From a virus (taxonomy: Duplodnaviria > Caudoviricetes), in the IMG/VR virus record IMGVR_UViG_3300032225_001322, positions 1-64,000 of that record: a stretch of 64,000 bases of DNA; one strand, 5' to 3'. Under the pieces are notes generated by a model that worked only from the letters and a program-made list of their open reading frames with translations, made no database searches and was not told where the DNA came from. The position numbers and the translations under genes are program-made. Positions 26,272 to 53,980 of the stretch are shown here, in pieces. How positions within the stretch are numbered: position 1 is the stretch's first letter; the number at the start of each line of letters is the position of its first letter.

Positions 26272-27657
26272 TTATAATTTTTCGCCTGGTTCAAAACCAC
26301 GAAATCGAACAAACCGCGGGAATCTTAACGAGTAAGAGCCGTCCTGATTTTGTGTAACTGCGTCGGCAGCCACTTCGACAATATCACCGACAAGGTTATC
26401 CCGACTGGCCCAATAATCAATGCGATTATCATCGCTAAGACCTGATCCGACATTAACCCTAATAAGTTTTCCATCATCTGTTCCTTCGCAAATAAATGCT
26501 CCAAGTCTACCTTCGTTTCGGCCTGTACCTTCTTCGTAGCCAACAATATTTAAATCCACAGTAATAACTGGTTTCCATTTCATCCAGAATGTATTGCGTT
26601 TACACTCATACGGAGCGTCAACATCTTTAATCATAATACCTTCGAAGCCTGCTACTACAGCATCGTTGGCATAACGGCGCAGAATATCATGACCTTCGCT
26701 AATACTAAGGTCGACTTCGATACCATCCATAACTCGAATACAATTAGTATTGTCTTCAAACACACTTCGATATTCTTCTAAAATAGCTAGTCGTTTATGT
26801 TGTTGAGCATTCCAATGTCCTAACGAAAAGTCAGTGAACGGAATAATATCAAACACAGAATAAACCATGTCAGTAGTTTCTACATTAGATTTTCGTTGAG
26901 CTTGTTTCATCAGTGCTTGAAAACTTGCGCCAATAACTTCACCGTCTAATACAAATCCTGTACGATATTTTGAAAAGAGTTTAGCAAATTTATTTTTATT
27001 TTCTTCTAATGATTCTATAATGTGTGGAAAGTTTTCAAATGGTTTTCCATTGCGACTGTATAAATTAATACCAGCTTTGGTCACCACTGCTAGCACCCGT
27101 ACACCATCTAATTTTTGTTCAAGGCGCTTGACGCCTTTCATTTTGCCTAAATGCTTGTTCGAGTCAGTAGCCAGCTGGCATTCAAATACAGGAATAGCCC
27201 ATTCAGTTTTACCCAAGACTTTATTAAGTGTACGCTCAGTAATGCCACAGCGTAAGTCTTTAATTAATACTGGACGGCATAACTCATTCCACTCCTCGCT
27301 ATCAAACTGGTCAGCAACATTTTGTATAGCATCGCGAGCGGCGTGTCCAGTCACGGAGCGAGTCCGTAAGGCTTCGCATAGTGCCCAAAACTTAGGCCAC
27401 GGATTAGGCATATGGACTAAACCTTCTGTTTCGGGTACTTTCTTTACTCCAAAGACATAGTATGGATTATACGCTTGATAGCAATTAAACAAGAAACATT
27501 GGGCATTAGTTGACCCGAGTTTTGCGGCCATTAATGCTTTTTCAATAACAGATTCTTTGTGTAAGCGGCTATCACTGCTTTTAAGGTCACGGATCCAATC
27601 TGCCGCCAATTTGATTCCTTCGAATTGTGTAGACTCAAAGTCTATTGTATTACTCAT
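26272..27657 (-). CDS. ATP-dependent DNA ligase (T4 gp30-like)
   Basis: EQKLDGVR (motif I), LDGE, FDI, EGIMIK, WMKWK and SLRFPRF. Confidence 0.95.
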   Translation of the reverse strand: MSNTIDFESTQFEGIKLAADWIRDLKSSDSRLHKESVIEKALMAAKLGSTNAQCFLFNCYQAYNPYYVFGVKKVPETEGLVHMPNPWPKFWALCEALRTRSVTGHAARDAIQNVADQFDSEEWNELCRPVLIKDLRCGITERTLNKVLGKTEWAIPVFECQLATDSNKHLGKMKGVKRLEQKLDGVRVLAVVTKAGINLYSRNGKPFENFPHIIESLEENKNKFAKLFSKYRTGFVLDGEVIGASFQALMKQAQRKSNVETTDMVYSVFDIIPFTDFSLGHWNAQQHKRLAILEEYRSVFEDNTNCIRVMDGIEVDLSISEGHDILRRYANDAVVAGFEGIMIKDVDAPYECKRNTFWMKWKPVITVDLNIVGYEEGTGRNEGRLGAFICEGTDDGKLIRVNVGSGLSDDNRIDYWASRDNLVGDIVEVAADAVTQNQDGSYSLRFPRFVRFRGFEPGEKL

Positions 27658-41774: not shown

Positions 41775-42122
41775 TTAAGATCGTCGTTTCATCGCCGCTT
41801 TGGCGTTAGAATCCACTACTTTGGCAGCCTGATCAGTGTCCATGGGCTGTTCGCCTGGTTCGTCATTTCCTTTAAACTTAACCACTCCTGAATTTGGTTC
41901 ATACGGAAGTAATACATTTGATAACGGATCTTTAGCAATTAAATCGCCCAATGTATCAGTAGTAACATTAACTCCAAGACTTTGTGCCAAGTCTATAAAT
42001 GCTTTTGTAGAAATTTGTTTCTTTGAATCAGTATCGCCAGCACGACCAGCAAGGAATTGAGTCAATGCCATGAGCTTACCGGAGTTAACAGTTTCTGGAT
42101 TTTCTACTTCAAAGATTAACAT
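41775..42122 (-). CDS. probable head-associated protein
   Basis: N-terminal MLIFE motif; late-gene cluster. Confidence 0.6.
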   Translation of the reverse strand: MLIFEVENPETVNSGKLMALTQFLAGRAGDTDSKKQISTKAFIDLAQSLGVNVTTDTLGDLIAKDPLSNVLLPYEPNSGVVKFKGNDEPGEQPMDTDQAAKVVDSNAKAAMKRRS

Positions 42123-43082
42123 TTAGCGTTTAGCGCGACCTAAGCCTGCGCCACCCATTTCAGGAGCTTCTGGCTCTTCTGGTGGAAGTTCTTCATCGTC
42201 CATTTCAACACCTAAATCGGCGCCAATATCAGCGCCCATCTCAGCACCTAGGTCAGCATCTAATTCATCTTGCCCCGGAATACTAGGAGCGGCTTGACCA
42301 GTAACAACACCAAGAGCTTGGTCTAATTGTTGTTTAGCACCTTGTAGATTTTGTAACAAACCAGCAAGAGCGGATGTAGCATCTGTGTTGAACTGCATTG
42401 CTTGGTCAACACCAATTTGATTTTTGATTTGGTCGCATAGTGCTGGCAAATCTTTAAACTGCATACTTGAAATTTCTTCGCTCATTTTTTGAACATTATC
42501 TACCATGTCTTGTGCGGCTAACACTACTTGTGCTTGTTGTACTTCTGATTCGCGAAGAATTTTATATAAACTATGTCTCAATTGTTTGCTTTCTGTTTGT
42601 AGAGCAGCTTGAGCAACTAATTGTTGATCAGCTGGATTTAATGATTGACCTTGTGTGGCTTTTTGCATAGCAGATTTTAATTTAGGATCACTAATAGTAT
42701 TTACTTGAGCTTGCTGTTGTTGTTTTTTAACAGCATCGCCTGCGGCTACCGTAGGATTAACTGGTGGCATACCTGCAACTGATTTAGCTTGATTTTGATC
42801 AGCCCCGGCAGTTGAGCCAACGGCAACGGTAGGAGTTTCGTTAACTTTGGTAGCTAACACTCTTTCCATCATCATCAACTTCAAATAAGTTGGGTTCTTT
42901 TCACTGTGATGAAAAGCTGATGTTTGACGATGTTCATTTACGAGCTTGCGTACTTTGTTTAACATCATACGGGCTTGTTTAGCGGACATTACGTCTACAT
43001 TAATGGAGTCACCAAAATAACTCTCAAATACCTTAGCGGCTTGCTTTGATGGCTTGGTTGCGGCCAGTTCGAACAGTTTCAT
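42123..43082 (-). CDS. probable prohead core/scaffold-like protein (start MKLFEL)
   Basis: TAAATA promoter, GAGG SD, [LIVF]xE sites, acidic C-terminus. Confidence 0.6.
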   Translation of the reverse strand: MKLFELAATKPSKQAAKVFESYFGDSINVDVMSAKQARMMLNKVRKLVNEHRQTSAFHHSEKNPTYLKLMMMERVLATKVNETPTVAVGSTAGADQNQAKSVAGMPPVNPTVAAGDAVKKQQQQAQVNTISDPKLKSAMQKATQGQSLNPADQQLVAQAALQTESKQLRHSLYKILRESEVQQAQVVLAAQDMVDNVQKMSEEISSMQFKDLPALCDQIKNQIGVDQAMQFNTDATSALAGLLQNLQGAKQQLDQALGVVTGQAAPSIPGQDELDADLGAEMGADIGADLGVEMDDEELPPEEPEAPEMGGAGLGRAKR

Positions 43083-43533
43083 TATTAAATCCTCGTTGTT
43101 GACAGTATTTAGCATAATTGACGCATTTGGTTAATTCCTGCTCTACTTGTTTTTTGTGTATAATCTTGGTTTCTAGCTTGGTTTCTATAGTTTCGCGAAA
43201 TAAAGGCTGTTTACTGCGGTCTGCTAGATTAGCTCTTGTTGATATATCTGATGTTAATGAGCTTAATTTATTGTCTAATGTTAGTATATCCCGGGCTAAG
43301 TTATAATGGGTATATTTGTCAGCTATACACCAGCTCAATGCTGTTTTTGTTGTACTAAACACACCCACTTCTGTAGCTGAACAGCGCACTCTGTATCCCT
43401 GCTTTTCCGGGCTTATTACATAACGGTCAAATACTTCGTATTCACCGTCGTCATTTTTCCATATAAGATTAGCAGCTAAATCTGGAAATTCTTTTCGAAA
43501 TAACTTGTTAAGTTCTGGGGTATTTTCAATCAT
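43033..43533 (-). CDS. hypothetical protein
   Basis: Coupled ORF. Confidence 0.65.
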   Translation of the reverse strand: MIENTPELNKLFRKEFPDLAANLIWKNDDGEYEVFDRYVISPEKQGYRVRCSATEVGVFSTTKTALSWCIADKYTHYNLARDILTLDNKLSSLTSDISTRANLADRSKQPLFRETIETKLETKIIHKKQVEQELTKCVNYAKYCQQRGFNNETVRTGRNQAIKASR

Positions 43534-43796
43534 TTAATTACGTAGTGGGATATGAGATAGATAGTTGATGCGGCGAGAAAACTAATAATGCCGACACCCC
43601 AGTGAATTAATCTATCTGTATTTTTTTCATTTAATTTACTAATAGATGCTTTAACATCCTGTACCATAGAGCAAAGATGTGCGATATTTTCACTCATAGC
43701 GGTCATTTTGTCTTCTAACGCATTATAGCGTTCAGCACAGAGTTCTACATGAGCTTCTAGACTCTTTTTTTCAATTTCAGTGGCTTCGATGCTCAT
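43530..43796 (-). CDS. coiled-coil plus C-terminal TM protein (holin-like)
   Basis: LEAHVELCAERY coiled coil and a single TM segment. Confidence 0.55.
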   Translation of the reverse strand: MSIEATEIEKKSLEAHVELCAERYNALEDKMTAMSENIAHLCSMVQDVKASISKLNEKNTDRLIHWGVGIISFLAASTIYLISHYVIK

Positions 43797-43826
43797 ATTC
43801 TGTCCTATTTTAGTATCATATATTTA

Positions 43827-44237
43827 TTATAATTCGTCAAACCATATATTTTGATCAGGCCCCGATACAATTAATAATGGTGCTAAATTTTTAATATTTC
43901 CCAATCCTACTAGCATAGGAACTCCTGCTGAGTCGGATAATAACAATTCTGTGGAGTTATCTTGGGAGCCAAATGCATATGGAGTCTCAGATTCAAATTC
44001 AAAGATCCATAAATCATTATTTCTTTTAGGATTTTGTAATTCTGAGATTTGTGTGCGTAAACTTATTAGTTGAGTAATAGTTTCCCAATTTCTTTGCTGA
44101 TTTCTAGCACGATTCCACGACAGTTCATTTTCAATATTACTGCCAGATAAATCTCGAAATGGAACTCGGGAAGATTTGTAATGTCCAGTTACACCAGTGG
44201 CGGTAATGTCAAAGAAGGTTTTACAAATAAATTTCAC
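43827..44237 (-). CDS. hypothetical protein
   Basis: T.FDIT.TG...RNQQRNW motif. Confidence 0.65.
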   Translation of the reverse strand: MKFICKTFFDITATGVTGHYKSSRVPFRDLSGSNIENELSWNRARNQQRNWETITQLISLRTQISELQNPKRNNDLWIFEFESETPYAFGSQDNSTELLLSDSAGVPMLVGLGNIKNLAPLLIVSGPDQNIWFDEL

Positions 44238-44488
44238 AATGCCTTTTTGGACAATTCATATAAAATTTCCGCTTGTTCGCAAAGGTTGTTTATTGCTGAA
44301 TTGTTTTTTCTAGCCGCTAAAATATATTGCCAACGCTCTTGTTGTTTTAATTCATTTTCTTGTTCAATTAGTTTAGGATCGCGACTATATAATTCCCTTG
44401 TGCTACTTCCTGGATGTCGAGCATAAACTGTACGGCCGCCATCGGGGCTTTCATATATGGTAACTTCGGTAATTTTATTAATTGTCAT
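44234..44488 (-). CDS. hypothetical protein
   Basis: IYESPDGG.TVY.R motif; TAAATA upstream. Confidence 0.7.
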   Translation of the reverse strand: MTINKITEVTIYESPDGGRTVYARHPGSSTRELYSRDPKLIEQENELKQQERWQYILAARKNNSAINNLCEQAEILYELSKKAL

Positions 44489-44525
44489 AATATAGGTATA
44501 TTTAACCTATAATAAACTGCCCAAC

Positions 44526-44548
44526 AAAAAAGCACCTTGCGGTGCTTT
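44526..44548 (-). terminator. intrinsic terminator
   Basis: AAAGCACC-GCAA-GGTGCTTT plus T tract. Confidence 0.8.
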
Positions 44549-44575
44549 CTTGACATTTTAAAGAAAACTTTAAAA

Positions 44576-45022
44576 TTAAGATGCTGCTAACTTGAAGCCT
44601 AAGTTTGTTACTTCAGCGCCTGTAGCACTAAAGCCAGTTGTTACGCCACCGTTAGTGATTTGGATGTTACCTAAAGCAACAACAAGTGCTTGAACAGCAG
44701 CTGCTGAAACACTAGCGTTACCACCAAATGCGCCTAATGGGTATGTAGCGATACTGATAGAGTTAGTATTAACTTGCTGAATAGCAATTGTGCAAAGCTG
44801 TTGTAATGCTTGATCAATAACTTGAACAGCGCCGTTAACTTGAGCTTGGTTTTGAATACCAGACAAGTTGCCGATTTGATAAAACTCAAGTGCTGGACCT
44901 GCAAAATTTGTAGGTGTAGCAGCTGGAGTGTAAGCAACGTTAGCTGATAATTGTGAGCCATTGCGTGTGTCAATGGAAAATACTGGTTGTGAACCGCCTG
45001 ATACTAATGGAATCTGTGCCAT
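44576..45022 (-). CDS. probable abundant virion structural protein
   Basis: Monocistronic: TAAATA promoter, AAGGAG SD and own terminator; Ala/Asn/Gln-rich. Confidence 0.65.
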   Translation of the reverse strand: MAQIPLVSGGSQPVFSIDTRNGSQLSANVAYTPAATPTNFAGPALEFYQIGNLSGIQNQAQVNGAVQVIDQALQQLCTIAIQQVNTNSISIATYPLGAFGGNASVSAAAVQALVVALGNIQITNGGVTTGFSATGAEVTNLGFKLAAS

Positions 45023-45099: not shown

Positions 45100-47049
45100 T
45101 TAGGATTGTGGAGCATTTTGGGCCGCATTTGCCCGAGAAAAACCAAATCTATTAACAAATTTAGTTATTCCGCCCGGATGAGCTATTACCCAGCCTTCTT
45201 GCCCAGGATGCTGACGGTCTAACTGTTGTAGCATATCCATCTTGATATTATGTAACAATACAAAGGCTGTAAATGCCGCACTCATTCCGTCCATATTACT
45301 TCTTGGGCTTTGTAAGTATTCTACGATATTATTATATTTTCGGGGAGTTACTTTAGTCTGTAACCACTTGCCAAATCCTGGCAATAATGTTGCCGGGTCA
45401 AAATCTGCCACAGAATCATCTTTAACTAGACTATTGATATAATCAACGCATAGTCTTGGCAAATCACTAATTTGTAGTTGACGCAGTTCGGCAGGATTAA
45501 ACAATGTATTAATAGCTATTCCACTACTGCTTACTAAACTTTTCAATTGTTTAACTAGACTACTATCTGTAGGTTTGACATTTTCTTTAGGAGAGATAGG
45601 TTCGATTAATAACAGACCGGGAACTGAGTTTAGATTAACTCGACCCAGTGGTTCTTTACCGGCACCTTGCTCTTTATAATAGGTGTGTATAGCAATACCC
45701 ACATGACTGCCAGCAATTTCTTCGCCTAATTTAGAGCTAGCTGGAATATTATATTCTACAGTATTGGGTTTGAATACAAAAGCCCCAGATACTTCGGGTG
45801 GTGTTGTAATATACAATAAATCGCCCTGGATATAACCTTTAAAATCTTTTGGAGTTGCTGCTTCTAACATGGGCCATAATGTTTGATAGATAGGGGCTAG
45901 TTGAGCTACCCGATTAGCGGATTTGCCCTGGGCTTTTGCTTCGGTATCGCGATTAGCTAAATGTTGTGTGATTTGTTTTGAGCTGGTAAACATGCCATTG
46001 TAGCCCACAGCGCCAAACCCTGCTACATCAGTTAATACAAAAGTGCCGTTAGGTTCGCGCCCAAACACCACCGCAGGTTTGCCGTCCCACTTAACTGTAA
46101 CCGATGATTTTGTGTTATCTTTAAGATGTTCAATGACCGCAAGTGCTTCCTTAATACCTGCGGTTCCTTTTCTAAATACTAAATCCTCAATATGTTCGAT
46201 GCCTTTGGCTTTACCGCCTTGTACTTCTATATTTTCAATTAGTTTTTCCATACCTTGATTGACAATACGGTCACGCAAGCGGGCTAGGAAATGTACTTCT
46301 GTATAAAGTTCTGTACTTGTATTTTCAAAAAATGGAGTTCCAACTCTTTCAAAGTGTGATCTAGCATCCGCTAATTTTTCATCTTTTTTAGGATCGTTTT
46401 TTAATGCCTGGACAATGTTTTCCACAGAGGTAAGATCTTTCTTTGTTGCTCCGGGAGTGAGTAATAATTTAGCGATCTTGTCGGGATCCGTTTCAACTAC
46501 TTCTTCATTAGCGCGATTGATAATACCACGACGCATGTCTAATTTATAACCAAATGCTTTAGCTAGTGAATTTACCACTACAGCTCTATCTTGACCTGAA
46601 AATTTTGAATTTGGCGACGCTTGTAAAAAGAATTGTCCTACTCCCATGTCTTTCATAAACATAAAATCAGTCTGTACATACCCTTTATTTGGATTACCGC
46701 CTATCGGTGTCTTAAAGTGTACTTGACCGCCTGCGTTTTTAACATATTCTTTTGGATCTAATTTATGACTATTACACCATTGGGTTAACTCTGCTACTAG
46801 TTGTTGTTGGGTGATTTCGTTAGCATTGACAGCTAAATCAAGATCTCCAGATGTAGGTTTCTTACCTGAACTACCCAACCAGCGTTCTGGATATCCAGTA
46901 TCAGGATCTATCTCGCCCCGCAAGTCAAGATCAGTTAATTGTTCTAGCCAGTCTACAGTAATAGCAACATCTGCTTGATTTATTCTTTGGGTTAAGGCTT
47001 GTTTATCATTGTTCTTAAAAACATTGCCGCCTTCTTTAATTAAATTCAT
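45100..47049 (-). CDS. fusion of Pol-beta-type nucleotidyltransferase and ATP-dependent ligase-like domain
   Basis: N-terminal LGSSG....SGDLDL...QTDF; C-terminal TVKWDG, QGDLLY, EGWV and KFV. Confidence 0.6.
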   Translation of the reverse strand: MNLIKEGGNVFKNNDKQALTQRINQADVAITVDWLEQLTDLDLRGEIDPDTGYPERWLGSSGKKPTSGDLDLAVNANEITQQQLVAELTQWCNSHKLDPKEYVKNAGGQVHFKTPIGGNPNKGYVQTDFMFMKDMGVGQFFLQASPNSKFSGQDRAVVVNSLAKAFGYKLDMRRGIINRANEEVVETDPDKIAKLLLTPGATKKDLTSVENIVQALKNDPKKDEKLADARSHFERVGTPFFENTSTELYTEVHFLARLRDRIVNQGMEKLIENIEVQGGKAKGIEHIEDLVFRKGTAGIKEALAVIEHLKDNTKSSVTVKWDGKPAVVFGREPNGTFVLTDVAGFGAVGYNGMFTSSKQITQHLANRDTEAKAQGKSANRVAQLAPIYQTLWPMLEAATPKDFKGYIQGDLLYITTPPEVSGAFVFKPNTVEYNIPASSKLGEEIAGSHVGIAIHTYYKEQGAGKEPLGRVNLNSVPGLLLIEPISPKENVKPTDSSLVKQLKSLVSSSGIAINTLFNPAELRQLQISDLPRLCVDYINSLVKDDSVADFDPATLLPGFGKWLQTKVTPRKYNNIVEYLQSPRSNMDGMSAAFTAFVLLHNIKMDMLQQLDRQHPGQEGWVIAHPGGITKFVNRFGFSRANAAQNAPQS

Positions 47050-48083
47050 TGGCCAGTTACCGCCGTAATTAATTTGTCTATAGTATCGGATCCAGTTTTT
47101 GATTTTACTACTTCTTTATTTTGTGCCATTCGTTGTTGTAATTTTGCAATTGCGTCTGGAGTAATACCTAATTGATTGGCTGCTTGTTGTTGTGTATAAG
47201 AAGCTGCGGATATACTTGATTGATTGTACGATCCTTGCCCTGCTCCAAGTGCGGCTAGTGCTACAGTAGCATATTCTTCAAAGGCCGCGTCTACTGCTTT
47301 AGTATTGCCTTTGGCCATTACAATTTTTTGAAAAAGTTGATCTAATTGTCTTTGAGTAGTTGGATCTATATTCTCTATGCCAGGAATATGCTGACTAATC
47401 CATTTTTGGAAATTTTTTTCTTCTATATCTTTTTTCCCAACTGCTTGTGTCGGTTGAACTGGGGCTACAGGTGCGTTTCGATTTTGAGATCGTTGAGCCA
47501 AGGAGCCTTCTCTAATTCCCGATAGTGGGCCCATCTGTCTATTTTGTGCCGCTATATTTTGTTGCGTTTGAGAAGTATATGGCTGTGTTGTAGTATTAGG
47601 TTTAACCGGTTGAACTGGAGCGACTGTTTTTTGTTGAATAAATTTCTTGGCCGCATCTGGATTCTTTTGATATTGAACATCGGGACCAGTATCAAACTCT
47701 TGGTCAAATGCCTTGACTAATTGTGCTATTTTTTGTTTAGCTTTTGGGTCTCGTTTAGCTAGTTCTAATTTTTGATCTAAACTTAGTTCACCTCGTTGGT
47801 TAGCACCGCGTACAGATGCGCCAACTTCCTTATATTGGTCACCTAGAGCTTTTTGATTTTTTGCGTTTATTTGTTGTCTAATCGCATTAGCTTGTGCTAA
47901 TGCCGACACATTTTGTGCCTGTTGAAATTTGCTTCCACTAAATGGATGTTTTATTGCATTTACCGCTGTATTTTTAGTTGAAGTAACAGCTTGGCCTAAA
48001 GAAGAGGCTTTGACCGATTGCTTAACAGTATCCAATAGCCCTTCATCGGTGCGCTGGCGCTTGGTTATTTCATGAATTTGCAT
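47046..48083 (-). CDS. probable head-packaged Gln-rich protein
   Basis: MQIHEI N-terminus; DEG and IREG sites. Confidence 0.6.
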   Translation of the reverse strand: MQIHEITKRQRTDEGLLDTVKQSVKASSLGQAVTSTKNTAVNAIKHPFSGSKFQQAQNVSALAQANAIRQQINAKNQKALGDQYKEVGASVRGANQRGELSLDQKLELAKRDPKAKQKIAQLVKAFDQEFDTGPDVQYQKNPDAAKKFIQQKTVAPVQPVKPNTTTQPYTSQTQQNIAAQNRQMGPLSGIREGSLAQRSQNRNAPVAPVQPTQAVGKKDIEEKNFQKWISQHIPGIENIDPTTQRQLDQLFQKIVMAKGNTKAVDAAFEEYATVALAALGAGQGSYNQSSISAASYTQQQAANQLGITPDAIAKLQQRMAQNKEVVKSKTGSDTIDKLITAVTGQ

Positions 48084-48370: not shown

Positions 48371-49774
48371 TTAATTCTGTTTAATTTGCCCCAATAATGC
48401 CTTTAATTTACTACTTTGTACTTCTGCTGTAATTTTTCCGATTTCTCCAGTATCAGCATCAATAGTTTCCCCGCCGCTAACTTTAGATTGTGTTTTAATA
48501 TTATCATAAATGTTAGCTTTTCTAAATGAATTTACTGGAGTGGCTTCTTCGGGTAAGTCAGTAATACGCATGGTTTCAATATTGTAGTCCAGTTCAACTT
48601 TTTGCCCTGTGCCGTTAGAAGTACGAGTTTTCATACATTGTAATTGATAGCGTCCACGCTCTTTCATGGCACGACTTGTAAAGATACCAAATACATTATC
48701 TGCGGTATTAATCTTAGAAATACCACCCGAAATATGACTATGATCAAATTCAATTTCTTCCACAGCCGCACGATTTAATTGCGAAGCTGTTACTAATAGT
48801 ATATTAAGCTCTTTTGCTAAATTGCGTAATTCTTCTGAAACATATTTGTCTTTAACAAACAAATCGTTAGGACTAACTTTAGCTGAAACTGGCATTAATA
48901 AGTCTAAGTAATCAACCATTACAAAATCAATTTTGATACCCGTTTGAACTTGTACTTCTTTTAAATAACTCCGCACATCATTGATATTACTTTGTGCTGG
49001 CAATGCCTTAACTCGATATTGCCCTGCTTTTTTGCCAAACATTTTAATCTTTAATTCAGCAGTTTCTAAATCTTTACGGATATCTTTAGTCGACATACTA
49101 GACAGCATAGCATCAGTACGCAATCCAACTAATTCTTCACTAAGCTCTAAACTAATATATGCGCCACTAAGCCCTTGCTCTAACCAGCTAATAGCAATAT
49201 TCATCATGACCAAAGATTTACCAGAACCAGATCCACCAGCAAAAATATTAAGTTCTCCGCGACTGAACCCGCCATAAAGAATCTTATCTAAACTTGGCCA
49301 GCCAGTGCTTACTTGCCCACCACTGTTAAAATATTTGTCATTGCGGCCTCTTGGATCAGCAAAATAGTCTGTACCCATGTCTTTTTGTAGACTAATTTGT
49401 ACTGCGTCTTTGATTAATTTTTCTACAGGCGCAAATTCGCCTTTGTCCAACATATCGTATGATTTAAGAATTGCTCTACTAAGTTCTTCTTTTTTAGTAA
49501 AACCTTCAAATTCTTCCATAAACCAATCTAAGTTACCGTCCGGTAAGTCTGGAAGAGTTTCTAATTTAGACCCAGTGGCGGCATTAATTTGTTCTAATAT
49601 AGGAAGTGATCCATGCTCTTCGTAGTGAGTTTTTACAAAATCTGCCGCCGCTCGTAAACTGCGATCAAAGTTTTCTGGGTTATAGATATTTTGAACACGG
49701 ACAAATGATTCAGCATCGCTGAGCATCATTTCTAAAAATAATTTTTGTACTTCGATACTATAATCTTTTAACAA
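48371..49774 (-). CDS. replicative DNA helicase (T4 gp41/DnaB-like)
   Basis: STGW..LD..L.GG, GGSGSGKS, VDYLDL and TASQLNR. Confidence 0.95.
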   Translation of the reverse strand: MLKDYSIEVQKLFLEMMLSDAESFVRVQNIYNPENFDRSLRAAADFVKTHYEEHGSLPILEQINAATGSKLETLPDLPDGNLDWFMEEFEGFTKKEELSRAILKSYDMLDKGEFAPVEKLIKDAVQISLQKDMGTDYFADPRGRNDKYFNSGGQVSTGWPSLDKILYGGFSRGELNIFAGGSGSGKSLVMMNIAISWLEQGLSGAYISLELSEELVGLRTDAMLSSMSTKDIRKDLETAELKIKMFGKKAGQYRVKALPAQSNINDVRSYLKEVQVQTGIKIDFVMVDYLDLLMPVSAKVSPNDLFVKDKYVSEELRNLAKELNILLVTASQLNRAAVEEIEFDHSHISGGISKINTADNVFGIFTSRAMKERGRYQLQCMKTRTSNGTGQKVELDYNIETMRITDLPEEATPVNSFRKANIYDNIKTQSKVSGGETIDADTGEIGKITAEVQSSKLKALLGQIKQN

Positions 49775-50738
49775 GTTGCTTCCTTTTTATTTCAATTTTA
49801 TATTTGTTAGTTTCTCTGGCATTTAATATAGTTAGTAGAGTTGCTACCTTACCCATACGAATTATAGCATCATTTACATCTTTGACACCCGCCGGCCATT
49901 CAGGGATACTAACACCCCACCCTAATTCTATTGCTCTATTTACTAATGTCATTCCAGCTTGATCCTGATCTGGAACCACAGTAATATTTTTACCTAAACT
50001 TTTAATTACCTGGACTTGTGTATCGTTAATATCGTTGTGTAATACTGCTAGTCCATTAATAGCAAGTGCGTCAAATACTCCTTCTACTACGATTAAATGT
50101 TCCCAATTATCTTTTTGTAAGTCAACCCCAAATACATAACCTTGTTGTGTATCTGATATAAATTTAGGTTGTCTGCTATCAATAAATCTAGATGTATTTC
50201 CTACCATTACACCTTTATGAGTAAACGGTATTACAATACGCTTACTTGATCTTCCTTCGGCATTTGGACTTACCATATATGGATAGCCTAAACAATCAAT
50301 ACATCTACCTTCCAAGTATTCAATATACGGGAAATGCTCGGGATTGTCAATATCTATAAGTTCCAAATCAGCTGGTAAATCTCGCTCTTCGAATTCAACT
50401 GCCTTAATTTGAGTCTTTTGATTCTCTATCAAACCATTCATAGTCCGATGTCTTAGACTTTCGATATTAATTGCTTCGATACTTTGTTGATCTACTCCTA
50501 ACCATTCTAATAATTTACGAGCTTTAAATGATAAATTACGACCTAAAATAAAACTAGCGGTATAGCCACAATTAAAACAATGATAACTCCACCCGCTTTC
50601 TGCGTTAGGTTTAAGGCCGCCACGCTGTCTTTTATCTTGACTATCGCCTCTATGAACGCAACACGGTGCGTTGAAAGATATCCAGCCAGAGCTAGTATGT
50701 TTTCGTTTACTAGGAAGAAAGGAAATCACATCAATCAT
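49758..50738 (-). CDS. DNA primase (T4 gp61-like)
   Basis: Zinc finger ..HCFNCG; TOPRIM VEGVFDA, PDQD.AG and KDVND. Confidence 0.92.
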   Translation of the reverse strand: MIDVISFLPSKRKHTSSGWISFNAPCCVHRGDSQDKRQRGGLKPNAESGWSYHCFNCGYTASFILGRNLSFKARKLLEWLGVDQQSIEAINIESLRHRTMNGLIENQKTQIKAVEFEERDLPADLELIDIDNPEHFPYIEYLEGRCIDCLGYPYMVSPNAEGRSSKRIVIPFTHKGVMVGNTSRFIDSRQPKFISDTQQGYVFGVDLQKDNWEHLIVVEGVFDALAINGLAVLHNDINDTQVQVIKSLGKNITVVPDQDQAGMTLVNRAIELGWGVSIPEWPAGVKDVNDAIIRMGKVATLLTILNARETNKYKIEIKRKQLVKRL

Positions 50739-51995: not shown

Positions 51996-52373
51996 ATGAA
52001 CGCAGAAATTTTTACAAAATTAACCGACAAATACCCGTTTATAACGCTATGTCTCTACGCCTCCCAGGAATATGTAGGAATTATACAAAATCGCGATGAT
52101 GCTATTACCACTATCTATGATTTCGGAAGTATAACAGATTTAGAAGCAAAAAAATTATTCTTAGAATTAGCTAATATTTGGTGGTGGGAAAGTAACAGAT
52201 CTATTCCTATTAATATCTATTTAAAACAGGAATGGGATCCATTTAGAGGTTACCTGCGTACATTTATCAACAAAGATCTTGAAATTCTACATGGCCCAGT
52301 TTGTAGTTTAGCTGAAATGGGTCGCAAAAAATCTAAACGTAAAAGTATTACTTTAGTTCGCCGGATGGACTAA
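51996..52373 (+). CDS. conserved hypothetical protein
   Basis: YPF...EYVGIIQN ... WWWESNR.IPIN; TAAATA upstream. Confidence 0.75.
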   Translation: MNAEIFTKLTDKYPFITLCLYASQEYVGIIQNRDDAITTIYDFGSITDLEAKKLFLELANIWWWESNRSIPINIYLKQEWDPFRGYLRTFINKDLEILHGPVCSLAEMGRKKSKRKSITLVRRMD

Positions 52374-52935
52374 TTTCATCCAATAAATTCATATGTAATG
52401 CTACCAATGCCGCATATGAAATTGAATGACTATGTTTAAAAATAAATCCTTTACTGTCGTCCCCGTTCCATACAGATTCAAAGATTTCACTCCAGGGCTT
52501 GTTTTGTAAGTGTGCTTTGCCTGGTCTAATAATAGCAATAAAAGCCGCCATTCTAGGAATTGAATCGGGCTTCATCTTCGTTAGTAAATCAGTATAGTTT
52601 CCAATATGGGCTAATTGTTTTGACCACTCTAGATCAGTGTATAATCTTTCCCACGGCGGTTCTTTAGTCAACATTTCTTGATAATGTTCTGGACTTTTAA
52701 TTAGCTGATAAACTGACATATTCAGTAAATCAATTTTAAAATAACCGCGAGCTTCAGCTTCTTCGTAATCAATAGCAGCACATTGATTGACTGGATCGTA
52801 TGGAATGTCTGTAACATAAACGCCAGAATTATGTCGACGAACTTGACCTTGATAAAGTTGTCGTGCGGGTATTGCTTGAATAAGTTTTAAAACTTGTTCT
52901 CGGTCGGCTAAATCGATATCAATATCTGCGCTCAT
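52348..52935 (-). CDS. miniature DNA polymerase III alpha (DnaE) catalytic-core protein
   Basis: DIDID, H.SGV, G.FKIDLL, A.IRPG and F..SH..SYA motifs in only 195 aa. Confidence 0.8.
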   Translation of the reverse strand: MSADIDIDLADREQVLKLIQAIPARQLYQGQVRRHNSGVYVTDIPYDPVNQCAAIDYEEAEARGYFKIDLLNMSVYQLIKSPEHYQEMLTKEPPWERLYTDLEWSKQLAHIGNYTDLLTKMKPDSIPRMAAFIAIIRPGKAHLQNKPWSEIFESVWNGDDSKGFIFKHSHSISYAALVALHMNLLDEISPSGELK

Positions 52936-53312
52936 AATACTAGTATAGCAATTATTCCAATATATGTCAAATAATGTAAACCTTGGTCAGCACCGAACCA
53001 TACCCAAAATTTACGATCAGCGGGAGTTAGTCCGCGACTTAAATTTGTTTTTGCCCAATCAATATGATAATGGATCAGGCCATCTAATATACCGAGTATG
53101 ATGGCAAACATATGAGCTCCTATATCCCAAGGAAAAATTATTAGTAATACAATAAAAGTTCCAAGAGCGTGCATGGCGGCATGATTGCGGCCGCCCGGAG
53201 CCATATATATGCCTTTATCTTTGAACATATTTTCATTTTGTAAAACAAAATCGCATACAAAATGTTTGATACCAAATAGTGCTAACAATATGCAAATGAT
53301 TTCCATTACCAA
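52932..53312 (-). CDS. DUF3307-like membrane protein
   Basis: KHF..DF.LQ, H...H, HYHIDW.K and DQ.LH. Confidence 0.8.
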   Translation of the reverse strand: MVMEIICILLALFGIKHFVCDFVLQNENMFKDKGIYMAPGGRNHAAMHALGTFIVLLIIFPWDIGAHMFAIILGILDGLIHYHIDWAKTNLSRGLTPADRKFWVWFGADQGLHYLTYIGIIAILVL

Positions 53313-53980
53313 CCTGCTTTCTGTAATAACTCTTGTGCTTCTATACGATTAGCCGGATCGTCTTTTAATTTTTTAGTCCACACATCAGGATCTATATACG
53401 GCCATACCATTGCTTGATGTTCAGTACTCATTTCAGATAAAAATCTTTGTCCCGATTCACAATTATATAATATCCAAGAACTAATGCGACCGTTGACTAT
53501 CGAATTTGTTATAGTATTGTGATTCCCGTAACGCAAATAATCTTGTGACGGTGCTTCCTTTTCCTCGGCCCAATCTAATGCGTGTTCTAAACCTCTAGTC
53601 AACGCATCCTCCATTCGTTCCACTTTAAGATAAAACAAAAGGTATTCGGTGTATAGATTGTCACTACACCAATAATCTAATTTTTTATTTTGTTTTAAAA
53701 CCCATTCTGTAAAACGAGCTGGATTAATGACTTTAGTGTTTACACAATATCTACCAAATTTTACAAATGCCTTATAGTATGGGCTTTCACAGAAATCATC
53801 GTAGGTTTTTAATTTAGCTGATCCTTGTGTGAGTTCATAAAATTTAAGATATGAATTGAATCCAAGTCTAACCCCAGCTTCGTCTTTTTCTTGCCTACGA
53901 CGTCTTGGCTCACAAGAATGCACAGTCAAAGAAGATTCTTTGATAAAATTCTTCTTACAATACTGGCAAGTGTAACTCAT
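53306..53980 (-). CDS. hypothetical protein with N-terminal zinc finger
   Basis: CQYC..F.....L..H.C. Confidence 0.7.
   Translation of the reverse strand: MSYTCQYCKKNFIKESSLTVHSCEPRRRRQEKDEAGVRLGFNSYLKFYELTQGSAKLKTYDDFCESPYYKAFVKFGRYCVNTKVINPARFTEWVLKQNKKLDYWCSDNLYTEYLLFYLKVERMEDALTRGLEHALDWAEEKEAPSQDYLRYGNHNTITNSIVNGRISSWILYNCESGQRFLSEMSTEHQAMVWPYIDPDVWTKKLKDDPANRIEAQELLQKAGW

Follow-up and report, generated by a model that had tools for sequence, protein, structure and literature searches.

A PolX-like domain fused to the ligase-fold domain DUF6267 in a probable jumbo phage: a candidate enzyme for fill-and-seal break repair

What does a phage gain by joining a polymerase-like domain and a ligase-like domain in one protein? 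The question is raised by an open reading frame (ORF) of 649 amino acids (aa) in the IMG/VR viral contig IMGVR_UViG_3300032225_001322, within the stretch of 64,000 nucleotides that we analysed (the window; positions 1 to 64,000 of the contig). The contig has 151,910 bp and a CheckV completeness estimate of 43%; given these values, it probably belongs to a jumbo phage. We propose that the protein is a single-chain enzyme that fills and seals breaks, probably in DNA, and we give this proposal an even chance of being right.

45100-47049, minus strand: the whole ORF (649 aa, ATG start), with a domain resembling family-X polymerases (PolX), a linker, and a ligase-fold domain (DUF6267)

Two catalytic folds in one chain

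The original prediction for this ORF, which was made from the sequence alone, described a virion-delivered fusion of a nucleotidyltransferase and a ligase. Every motif that it quoted is in the ORF: LGSSGKKPTSGDLDL (aa 58-72), VQTDF (aa 125-129), KWDG (aa 320-323), QGDLLY (aa 408-413), EGWV (aa 618-621), and KFVNR (aa 630-634). Across 14 full-length homologues (60-82% identity), G59, G62, S67, G68, D69, D71, and D128 are unchanged, and likewise K320, D322, G323, D410, E618, G619, and K630. When stand-alone N-domains (21 sequences) and stand-alone C-domains (27 sequences) are aligned separately, at 31-55% identity, the core residues again do not vary. Because the key residues are invariant in the full-length, N-only, and C-only alignments, the motifs are under selection and did not arise by chance. 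The family is large: a word-indexed search found >4,000 relatives, and an exhaustive search matched 1,366 representatives (clustered at 50% identity), 237 of them with E of 1e-30 or better. The PHROGs match for the protein is an unannotated family. Sequence searches of the PDB, with the single protein and with profiles of both domains, gave nothing meaningful, and a nucleotide search of a phage collection found no close relative.

46315-47049, minus strand: N-terminal domain (aa 1-245), a minimal family-X-like polymerase with palm and thumb, without the 8-kDa or helix-hairpin-helix (HhH) subdomains
46837-46875, minus strand: GS...SGDLD motif (aa 59-71), with two of the three catalytic carboxylates (D69, D71), invariant in the full-length and N-domain alignments
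46666-46668, minus strand: the third carboxylate, D128 in VQTDF, invariant in the full-length and N-domain alignments

The N-terminal half was predicted to carry a Pol-beta superfamily signature, and it does: G59/S60...S67-G68-D69-x-D71 and D128 are invariant, and the palm superposes on PolX. A structural model built from the domain's own alignment has a predicted local distance difference test (pLDDT) score of 91.5. When this model was compared to the PDB with Foldseek, the top 50 of 50 matches were family-X polymerases (Pol beta, Pol lambda, TdT, and Thermus PolX), with probabilities of 0.99-1.00. In BFVD, the named matches were giant-virus proteins annotated as "DNA polymerase family X" and an entomopoxvirus protein that combines an apurinic/apyrimidinic (AP) endonuclease with PolX. 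The PolX matches cover 155-182 residues over model residues 1-219, while nucleotidyltransferases outside PolX cover about 83-99 residues within about 21-155. The model also has a thumb (C-terminal) subdomain after the palm. Thus the Pol-beta fold stands, but two of the activities that had been listed for it, CCA addition and cyclic-nucleotide synthesis, are not supported for a half that is like family-X polymerases: CCA-adding enzymes, CD-NTases, and terminal uridylyltransferases align on the palm core only. From the model, we assign the N-domain as the palm and thumb of PolX, with template-directed addition as its predicted activity.

We did not find the 8-kDa (deoxyribose phosphate lyase, or dRP lyase) and HhH subdomains: in the model, the roughly 65 residues ahead of the first palm strand hold one helix (aa 25-39). 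Profile evidence for PolX is faint. Among 21 relatives of the N-domain, DNA_pol_B_palm reached E 0.08 and the thumb profile reached E 0.22, in one member each; some of the clusters that neighbour the N-half in the Atlas carry PF14792 or PF14791. The stretch F150-x-G152-x-D154...A163-K164-x-x-G167-Y-K-L presumably recalls the YFTGS / helix-N region of Pol beta, and we take this as a lead only.

A stand-alone homologue of the N-domain lies in the Agrobacterium jumbo phage Atu_ph07 (51340-52173), a few genes downstream of the primase/helicase. This phage has a NAD+-dependent ligase elsewhere, and DUF6267 was not detected beside its N-domain gene. The ORF two genes downstream of that gene was tested as a DUF6267 relative and ruled out.

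46201-46314, minus strand: linker (aa 246-283), with a conserved FLARLRDRIVNQGM helix and a variable h-h-E stretch
about 46249-46296, minus strand: the FLARLRDRIVNQGM linker helix (aa 252-267), which is also at the C-terminal end of some stand-alone N proteins and the N-terminal end of some stand-alone C proteins
45103-46200, minus strand: C-terminal domain (aa 284-649), DUF6267, a covalent nucleotidyltransferase (ligase) fold without an oligonucleotide-binding (OB) domain
46081-46092, minus strand: motif I, KWDG, in which the lysine K320 is predicted to accept AMP; K, D, and G are invariant
45811-45825, minus strand: motif III-like GDLLY; D410 replaces the usual Glu, and G and D are invariant
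45211-45603, minus strand: inserted module of about 130 residues (aa 483-613) that separates the IIIa sheet from motif IV; its secondary structure in the model is all helical
45187-45198, minus strand: motif IV, EGWV; E, G, and V are invariant
45148-45162, minus strand: motif V-like KFVNR, with one Lys and one Arg; K630 and R634 are invariant

The C-terminal half was expected to be a KxDG covalent nucleotidyltransferase, and both its fold and its motifs agree. In Pfam it matches PF19782 (DUF6267; E 3e-35, 122.6 bits against a cut-off of 27), with aa 284-641 aligned to positions 4-371 of the 376 in the profile. PF19782 is its only match: DNA_ligase_A_M, RNA_ligase, and RNA_lig_T4_1 do not match this half, and there is no PF01653 signal in the 649-aa protein. 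The model of this half (pLDDT 90.7, built from its own alignment) contains motifs I, Ia, III, IIIa, IV, and V in order (K320-W-D-G, G330-R331, G409-D410, F426-x-P428, E618-G-W-V, and K630-x-V-x-R634), with invariant residues. The best Foldseek match is the adenylyltransferase domain of the fungal tRNA ligase Trl1, followed by DNA ligases and T4 Rnl1, and in the full VIA fold scan the top 32 rows are all covalent nucleotidyltransferases. The prediction that there is no OB domain also held up, as the model stops 15-19 residues past motif V, with one short helix. As a candidate substitute for an OB or C-terminal nucleic-acid-binding domain, the model offers the inserted helical module. We found no literature under the name DUF6267.

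The ranking of the folds supports the RNA-ligase-like nature that had been suggested for this half. So we also considered that the protein might repair RNA, such as tRNA: the N-domain would restore one or two nucleotides at RNA 3' ends, as RlaP does, and DUF6267 would rejoin RNA that was cut by anticodon nucleases or toxins. The match to Trl1 fits this idea, as does the ranking of the ligase nearer to RNA ligases and an Atlas lead to PF09414 (RNA_ligase; score 0.76). The N-domain does not: it fits PolX over both palm and thumb, while RNA-specific nucleotidyltransferases align with it on the palm alone, and the RlaP profile (PF10127) matched neither the 21 relatives of the N-domain (E up to 10) nor the contig (E up to 1). 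(The RlaP crystal structure was not among the fold-search matches, and it is possibly not in the copy of the PDB that we searched.) We consider repair of RNA to be the main rival to our proposal, less likely than repair of DNA but still a serious one.

Linkage of the domains and position in the genome

The architectures in the family tie the two halves to each other. With X for an unassigned stretch of >120 residues, the 150 best representatives (clustered at 50% identity) comprise C alone (39), N-C (32), N alone (22), N-C-X (13), X-N-C (8), C-N (4), and other mixed arrangements (32). So both orders of fusion exist, N-C and C-N. Where the domains are split, they are encoded by adjacent overlapping genes (loci L006 and L076-L090). 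The FLARLRDRIVNQGM helix of the linker might serve to dock the two enzymes onto each other.

The commonest third fusion partner is a HIGH-type nucleotidyltransferase (CTP_transf_like). Further fused domains are HAD/NT5C phosphatases, DUF5661, and one Amidoligase_2; a single relative carries both Amidoligase_2 and NT5C. These partners bear on two alternatives. Phages are known to combine a Pol-beta nucleotidyltransferase, an RNA ligase, a kinase, and a HAD phosphatase in an RNA-repair kit (PMC7824862; PMC12776372), and the same accessory domains are fused or adjacent in this family, as would be expected for RNA repair. Alternatively, the domains might not join strands at all, and together with the HIGH-type enzyme they might modify DNA bases (as in hypermodification) or act on cofactors (such as those of the NAD type) or nucleotides. 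The frequency of CTP_transf_like as a partner suggests this, as does its place beside DUF6267 in cyanophages, in pelagiphage HTVC008M, and in DLP6, and so does the relative with both Amidoligase_2 and NT5C. However, both folds are those of enzymes that act on polynucleotide ends, and the residues for extending a 3'-OH and for nucleotidylating a lysine are intact. Also, the 649-aa protein has no such partner domain, and in the contig the one ORF with HIGH/P-loop signals, which are weak, lies about 41 kb away. We think that a role other than joining strands is improbable. The distant ORF is a 282-aa open frame (contig about 88186-88773, minus strand) with weak AAA_33 P-loop kinase and CTP_transf_like signals; it could encode a NadR-like enzyme or the third partner.

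The position of the gene favors our proposal of break repair, with DNA as the substrate. The features around it are:

47046-48083, minus strand: upstream ORF of 345 aa, rich in Q, A, and K, whose TGA overlaps the ATG of the fusion (ATGA)
48371-49774, minus strand: DnaB-like helicase, which heads the same co-directional block with the primase
49758-50738, minus strand: primase, which heads the same co-directional block with the DnaB-like helicase
41775-45022, minus strand: block of small ORFs (148, 84, 136, 88, 166, 330, and 115 aa) without Pfam families, syntenic downstream of the fusion in >30 viral contigs
26272-27657, minus strand: canonical ATP-dependent DNA ligase (PF01068, E 1e-23; also touches PF09414; domain matches at 26572-27177)

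The ATGA overlap indicates that the fusion gene is translationally coupled into the primase-DnaB operon, in which an 82-aa ORF on the same strand lies between the DnaB-type helicase and the 345-aa ORF. The genes nearby encode a ribonucleotide reductase, a PD-(D/E)XK exonuclease, a second helicase, UvsX, and a gp32-type single-stranded DNA-binding protein (SSB). The order primase, DnaB, (variable), 82 aa, variable Q-rich, fusion, and conserved small ORFs is kept in >35 viral contigs. For RNA repair, this is unexpected: the gene lies within a replication operon and away from tRNA or RNA-repair genes, and the 152-kb contig has no tRNA genes. On the other hand, the phage carries two ligase-fold genes, the fusion and the canonical ligase, and the presence of a separate DNA ligase counts in favor of RNA repair.

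The gene position just upstream of the fusion is hypervariable in the relatives (many unrelated clusters, 160-530 aa), while the flanking genes are conserved. The 345-aa protein is probably disordered, and we detected no relative of it at the same position in L006 or Atu_ph07. In some relatives, a Pol III alpha-like gene of about 565 aa (L073:1058-2752), on the opposite strand, or a radical-SAM gene lies between the helicase and the fusion; these genes were the exceptions in a Pfam scan of the conserved neighbour clusters (c13, c44, c45, c8, and others), which found no families otherwise. Further upstream, a 195-aa ORF that matches a PHROG "DNA polymerase" family adjoins an unannotated 224-aa ORF (52348-52935 and 53306-53980, minus strand). 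A scan for promoters and terminators across 43.5-52.5 kb gave results that were indistinguishable from those for shuffled sequence.

The original prediction placed the protein in the virion, as a two-enzyme cargo that is packaged in the head, processed by a protease, and injected with the DNA. The activity of such a cargo could be either of the two repair types considered here. In nearly all homologues, [LI]-x-E does precede both domain cores, and we take this pattern to resemble the site of T4-type prohead proteases. N-terminal M-x(1-3)-[LI]-x-E is also somewhat frequent in the contig (7 of 148 ORFs, with 2.8 expected; uncorrected P about 0.02), and some of the unannotated downstream genes, including the 330-aa ORF in the block of small ORFs, have weak PHROG matches to "virion structural protein". 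However, in 26 of 77 occurrences among the representatives, [LI]xE-GGN[VI]FK is internal, with 40-700 residues of other domains ahead of it, which makes it a piece of the domain core rather than a terminal leader. The 7 ORFs with N-terminal [LI]xE include the SSB as well as both genes at 45100-48083, and N-terminal [LI]xE is weak evidence for a targeting signal. As for the FFE and LIE strings of the linker, both are present, as had been noted, but nothing indicates that they are cleavage sites. Homologues in deposited phages are annotated only as hypothetical, while a nearby gene of P-HM1 is marked as a virion protein, and we found no proteomic data. Together with the apparent coupling to the co-directional primase-helicase block and the synteny in >35 viral contigs, this leaves delivery in the virion without support, and we regard a packaged cargo as very unlikely.

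DUF6267 in cyanophages and their relatives

By itself, the C-half matches 229 phage records, and 216 of these are cyanophages; DUF6267 is near-universal in marine cyanomyoviruses. In the cyanophage P-HM1, the pelagiphage HTVC008M, and the Methylophilales phage Melnitz, DUF6267 is downstream of uvsX-gp41 (1-4 ORFs after gp41), and a gene for a HIGH-type "cytidylyltransferase" is just downstream of DUF6267. In HTVC008M, a Zeta/AAA_33 P-loop kinase is encoded between the two, two genes downstream of DUF6267. DUF5824 is present in the large nucleotidyltransferase protein. We also considered whether two other genes of the cyanophages and pelagiphages, the upstream gene of about 350 aa and the large cytidylyltransferase-like gene, are hidden homologues of the N-domain, but profile comparisons gave probabilities of <1%.

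The DUF6267 proteins of these three phages retain all of the catalytic residues. Neither PF01068 nor PF01653 has a match in the three complete Kyanoviridae genomes (P-HM1, HTVC008M, and Melnitz), while DLP6 and Atu_ph07 do have matches of these types. A 2010 review stated that cyanomyoviruses are without a homologue of the g30 ligase and left open a distant homologue (PMC2984593). If DUF6267 sealed RNA, it would be surprising to find it after uvsX-gp41 in genomes where no canonical DNA ligase was found.

Fill-and-seal repair and its closest parallels

From the folds, the conserved catalytic residues, the linkage of the domains, and the replication-module context, which the analysis shows, we infer a substrate, a nucleotide cofactor, and an order of reactions. 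The minimal PolX domain would extend a 3'-OH by one or a few nucleotides, either in a gap or where an end is recessed, and D69, D71, and D128 would serve in catalysis together with two metal ions. DUF6267 would then act as a nucleotide-dependent polynucleotide ligase: K320 would be adenylylated, the AMP would be passed to the 5'-phosphate, and the nick would be closed, with the inserted helical module standing in for the OB domain. The most likely substrate would be duplex DNA, perhaps with ribonucleotide patches, during or after replication of the phage. The protein would thus do in phages what Pol beta and a ligase do in base-excision and single-strand-break repair. We favor DNA because of the PolX-specific thumb, the position in the replication operon, and the absence of another ligase in Kyanoviridae. 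The fusions to HAD/NT5C phosphatases and the P-loop kinase of HTVC008M fit with the healing of ends.

Several points weigh against this proposal. The C-half has no OB domain or other known DNA-encircling domain, nor a C-terminal domain of the Rnl1 or Rnl2 type. The N-half of the 649-aa protein has no Pfam match, and PolX profiles are below significance. The phage already has a canonical ATP-dependent DNA ligase (26272-27657), and phage RNA ligases team with Pol-beta-fold nucleotidyltransferases (RlaP), kinases, and HAD phosphatases for the repair of tRNA (PMC7824862). The recurrent HIGH-type nucleotidyltransferase is not explained by fill-and-seal repair or by RNA repair. Finally, our view of the genome is limited to the contig, which makes up about 43% of it.

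The closest known protein is PgVPolX from Phaeocystis globosa virus 16T, a giant-virus fusion of PolX and ligase that fills and seals 1-nt gaps in vitro (PMC5537341). It too is one viral polypeptide with an N-terminal family-X polymerase and a C-terminal ligase. However, PgVPolX has 1093 aa, with a full Pol beta core that includes the 8-kDa dRP-lyase and a canonical NAD+-dependent ligase of the LigA type, while the phage protein has just palm and thumb, followed by DUF6267 with KxDG and no OB domain, and it comes from a bacteriophage. Pol X of African swine fever virus (ASFV) also consists of palm and thumb, likewise without the 8-kDa and HhH subdomains, but it is encoded separately from the ligase AsfvLIG, which is of the conventional ATP-dependent type and has an OB domain, and identity to the model is about 12%. 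Bacterial LigD, which acts in non-homologous end joining, similarly combines a gap-filling polymerase, end-cleaning, and a ligase in one chain; its polymerase has the primase-polymerase (AEP) fold, its ligase has an OB domain, and it depends on Ku.

Among enzymes for RNA, the Rnl5 ligases (NgrRnl of Naegleria and DraRnl of Deinococcus, which are nick-sealing RNA ligases) have about 12% identity and no Pfam cross-match. They also differ in their accessory parts: an N-terminal OB-like module in Rnl5, and in DUF6267 the internal helical insert and a conserved upstream HxED helix. The pairs of RlaP (PF10127) and RNA ligase in phages and bacteria resemble our protein in that a Pol-beta-fold nucleotidyltransferase is genetically tied to a ligase, with kinase and HAD partners, but the phage N-domain has no PF10127 match and has a PolX-type thumb instead of the helical domain of RlaP (PMC12776372).

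Polymerase-ligase repair fusions (PgVPolX and LigD) and nucleotidyltransferase-ligase pairs for RNA repair are already known. The new elements are the uncharacterised DUF6267 ligase family, the occurrence of a PolX-type polymerase in phages, and how widely the two are fused. A 2022 review of phage DNA polymerases gives family X for eukaryotes, bacteria, archaea, and ASFV only (PMC8775771), and a 2021 survey of jumbo phages does not mention PolX (PMC7824862). Tentatively, and knowing that it is somewhat more apt to be wrong than right, we suggest a broader picture: DUF6267 would be an undescribed family of polynucleotide ligases, with a helical module in place of the OB domain, and would be the gp30-type ligase of the Kyanoviridae (T4-like cyanophages and pelagiphages); in aquatic jumbo phages it would be fused to PolX as a one-protein machine for filling and sealing gaps, often with HAD, kinase, and HIGH-type nucleotidyltransferase modules.

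Such an enzyme could serve as a compact fill-and-seal reagent. A PolX-like domain with >1,300 relatives in viral metagenomes would widen the toolkit of phages for replication and repair, and DUF6267 is a concrete candidate for the g30 ligase homologue that is lacking in cyanomyoviruses.

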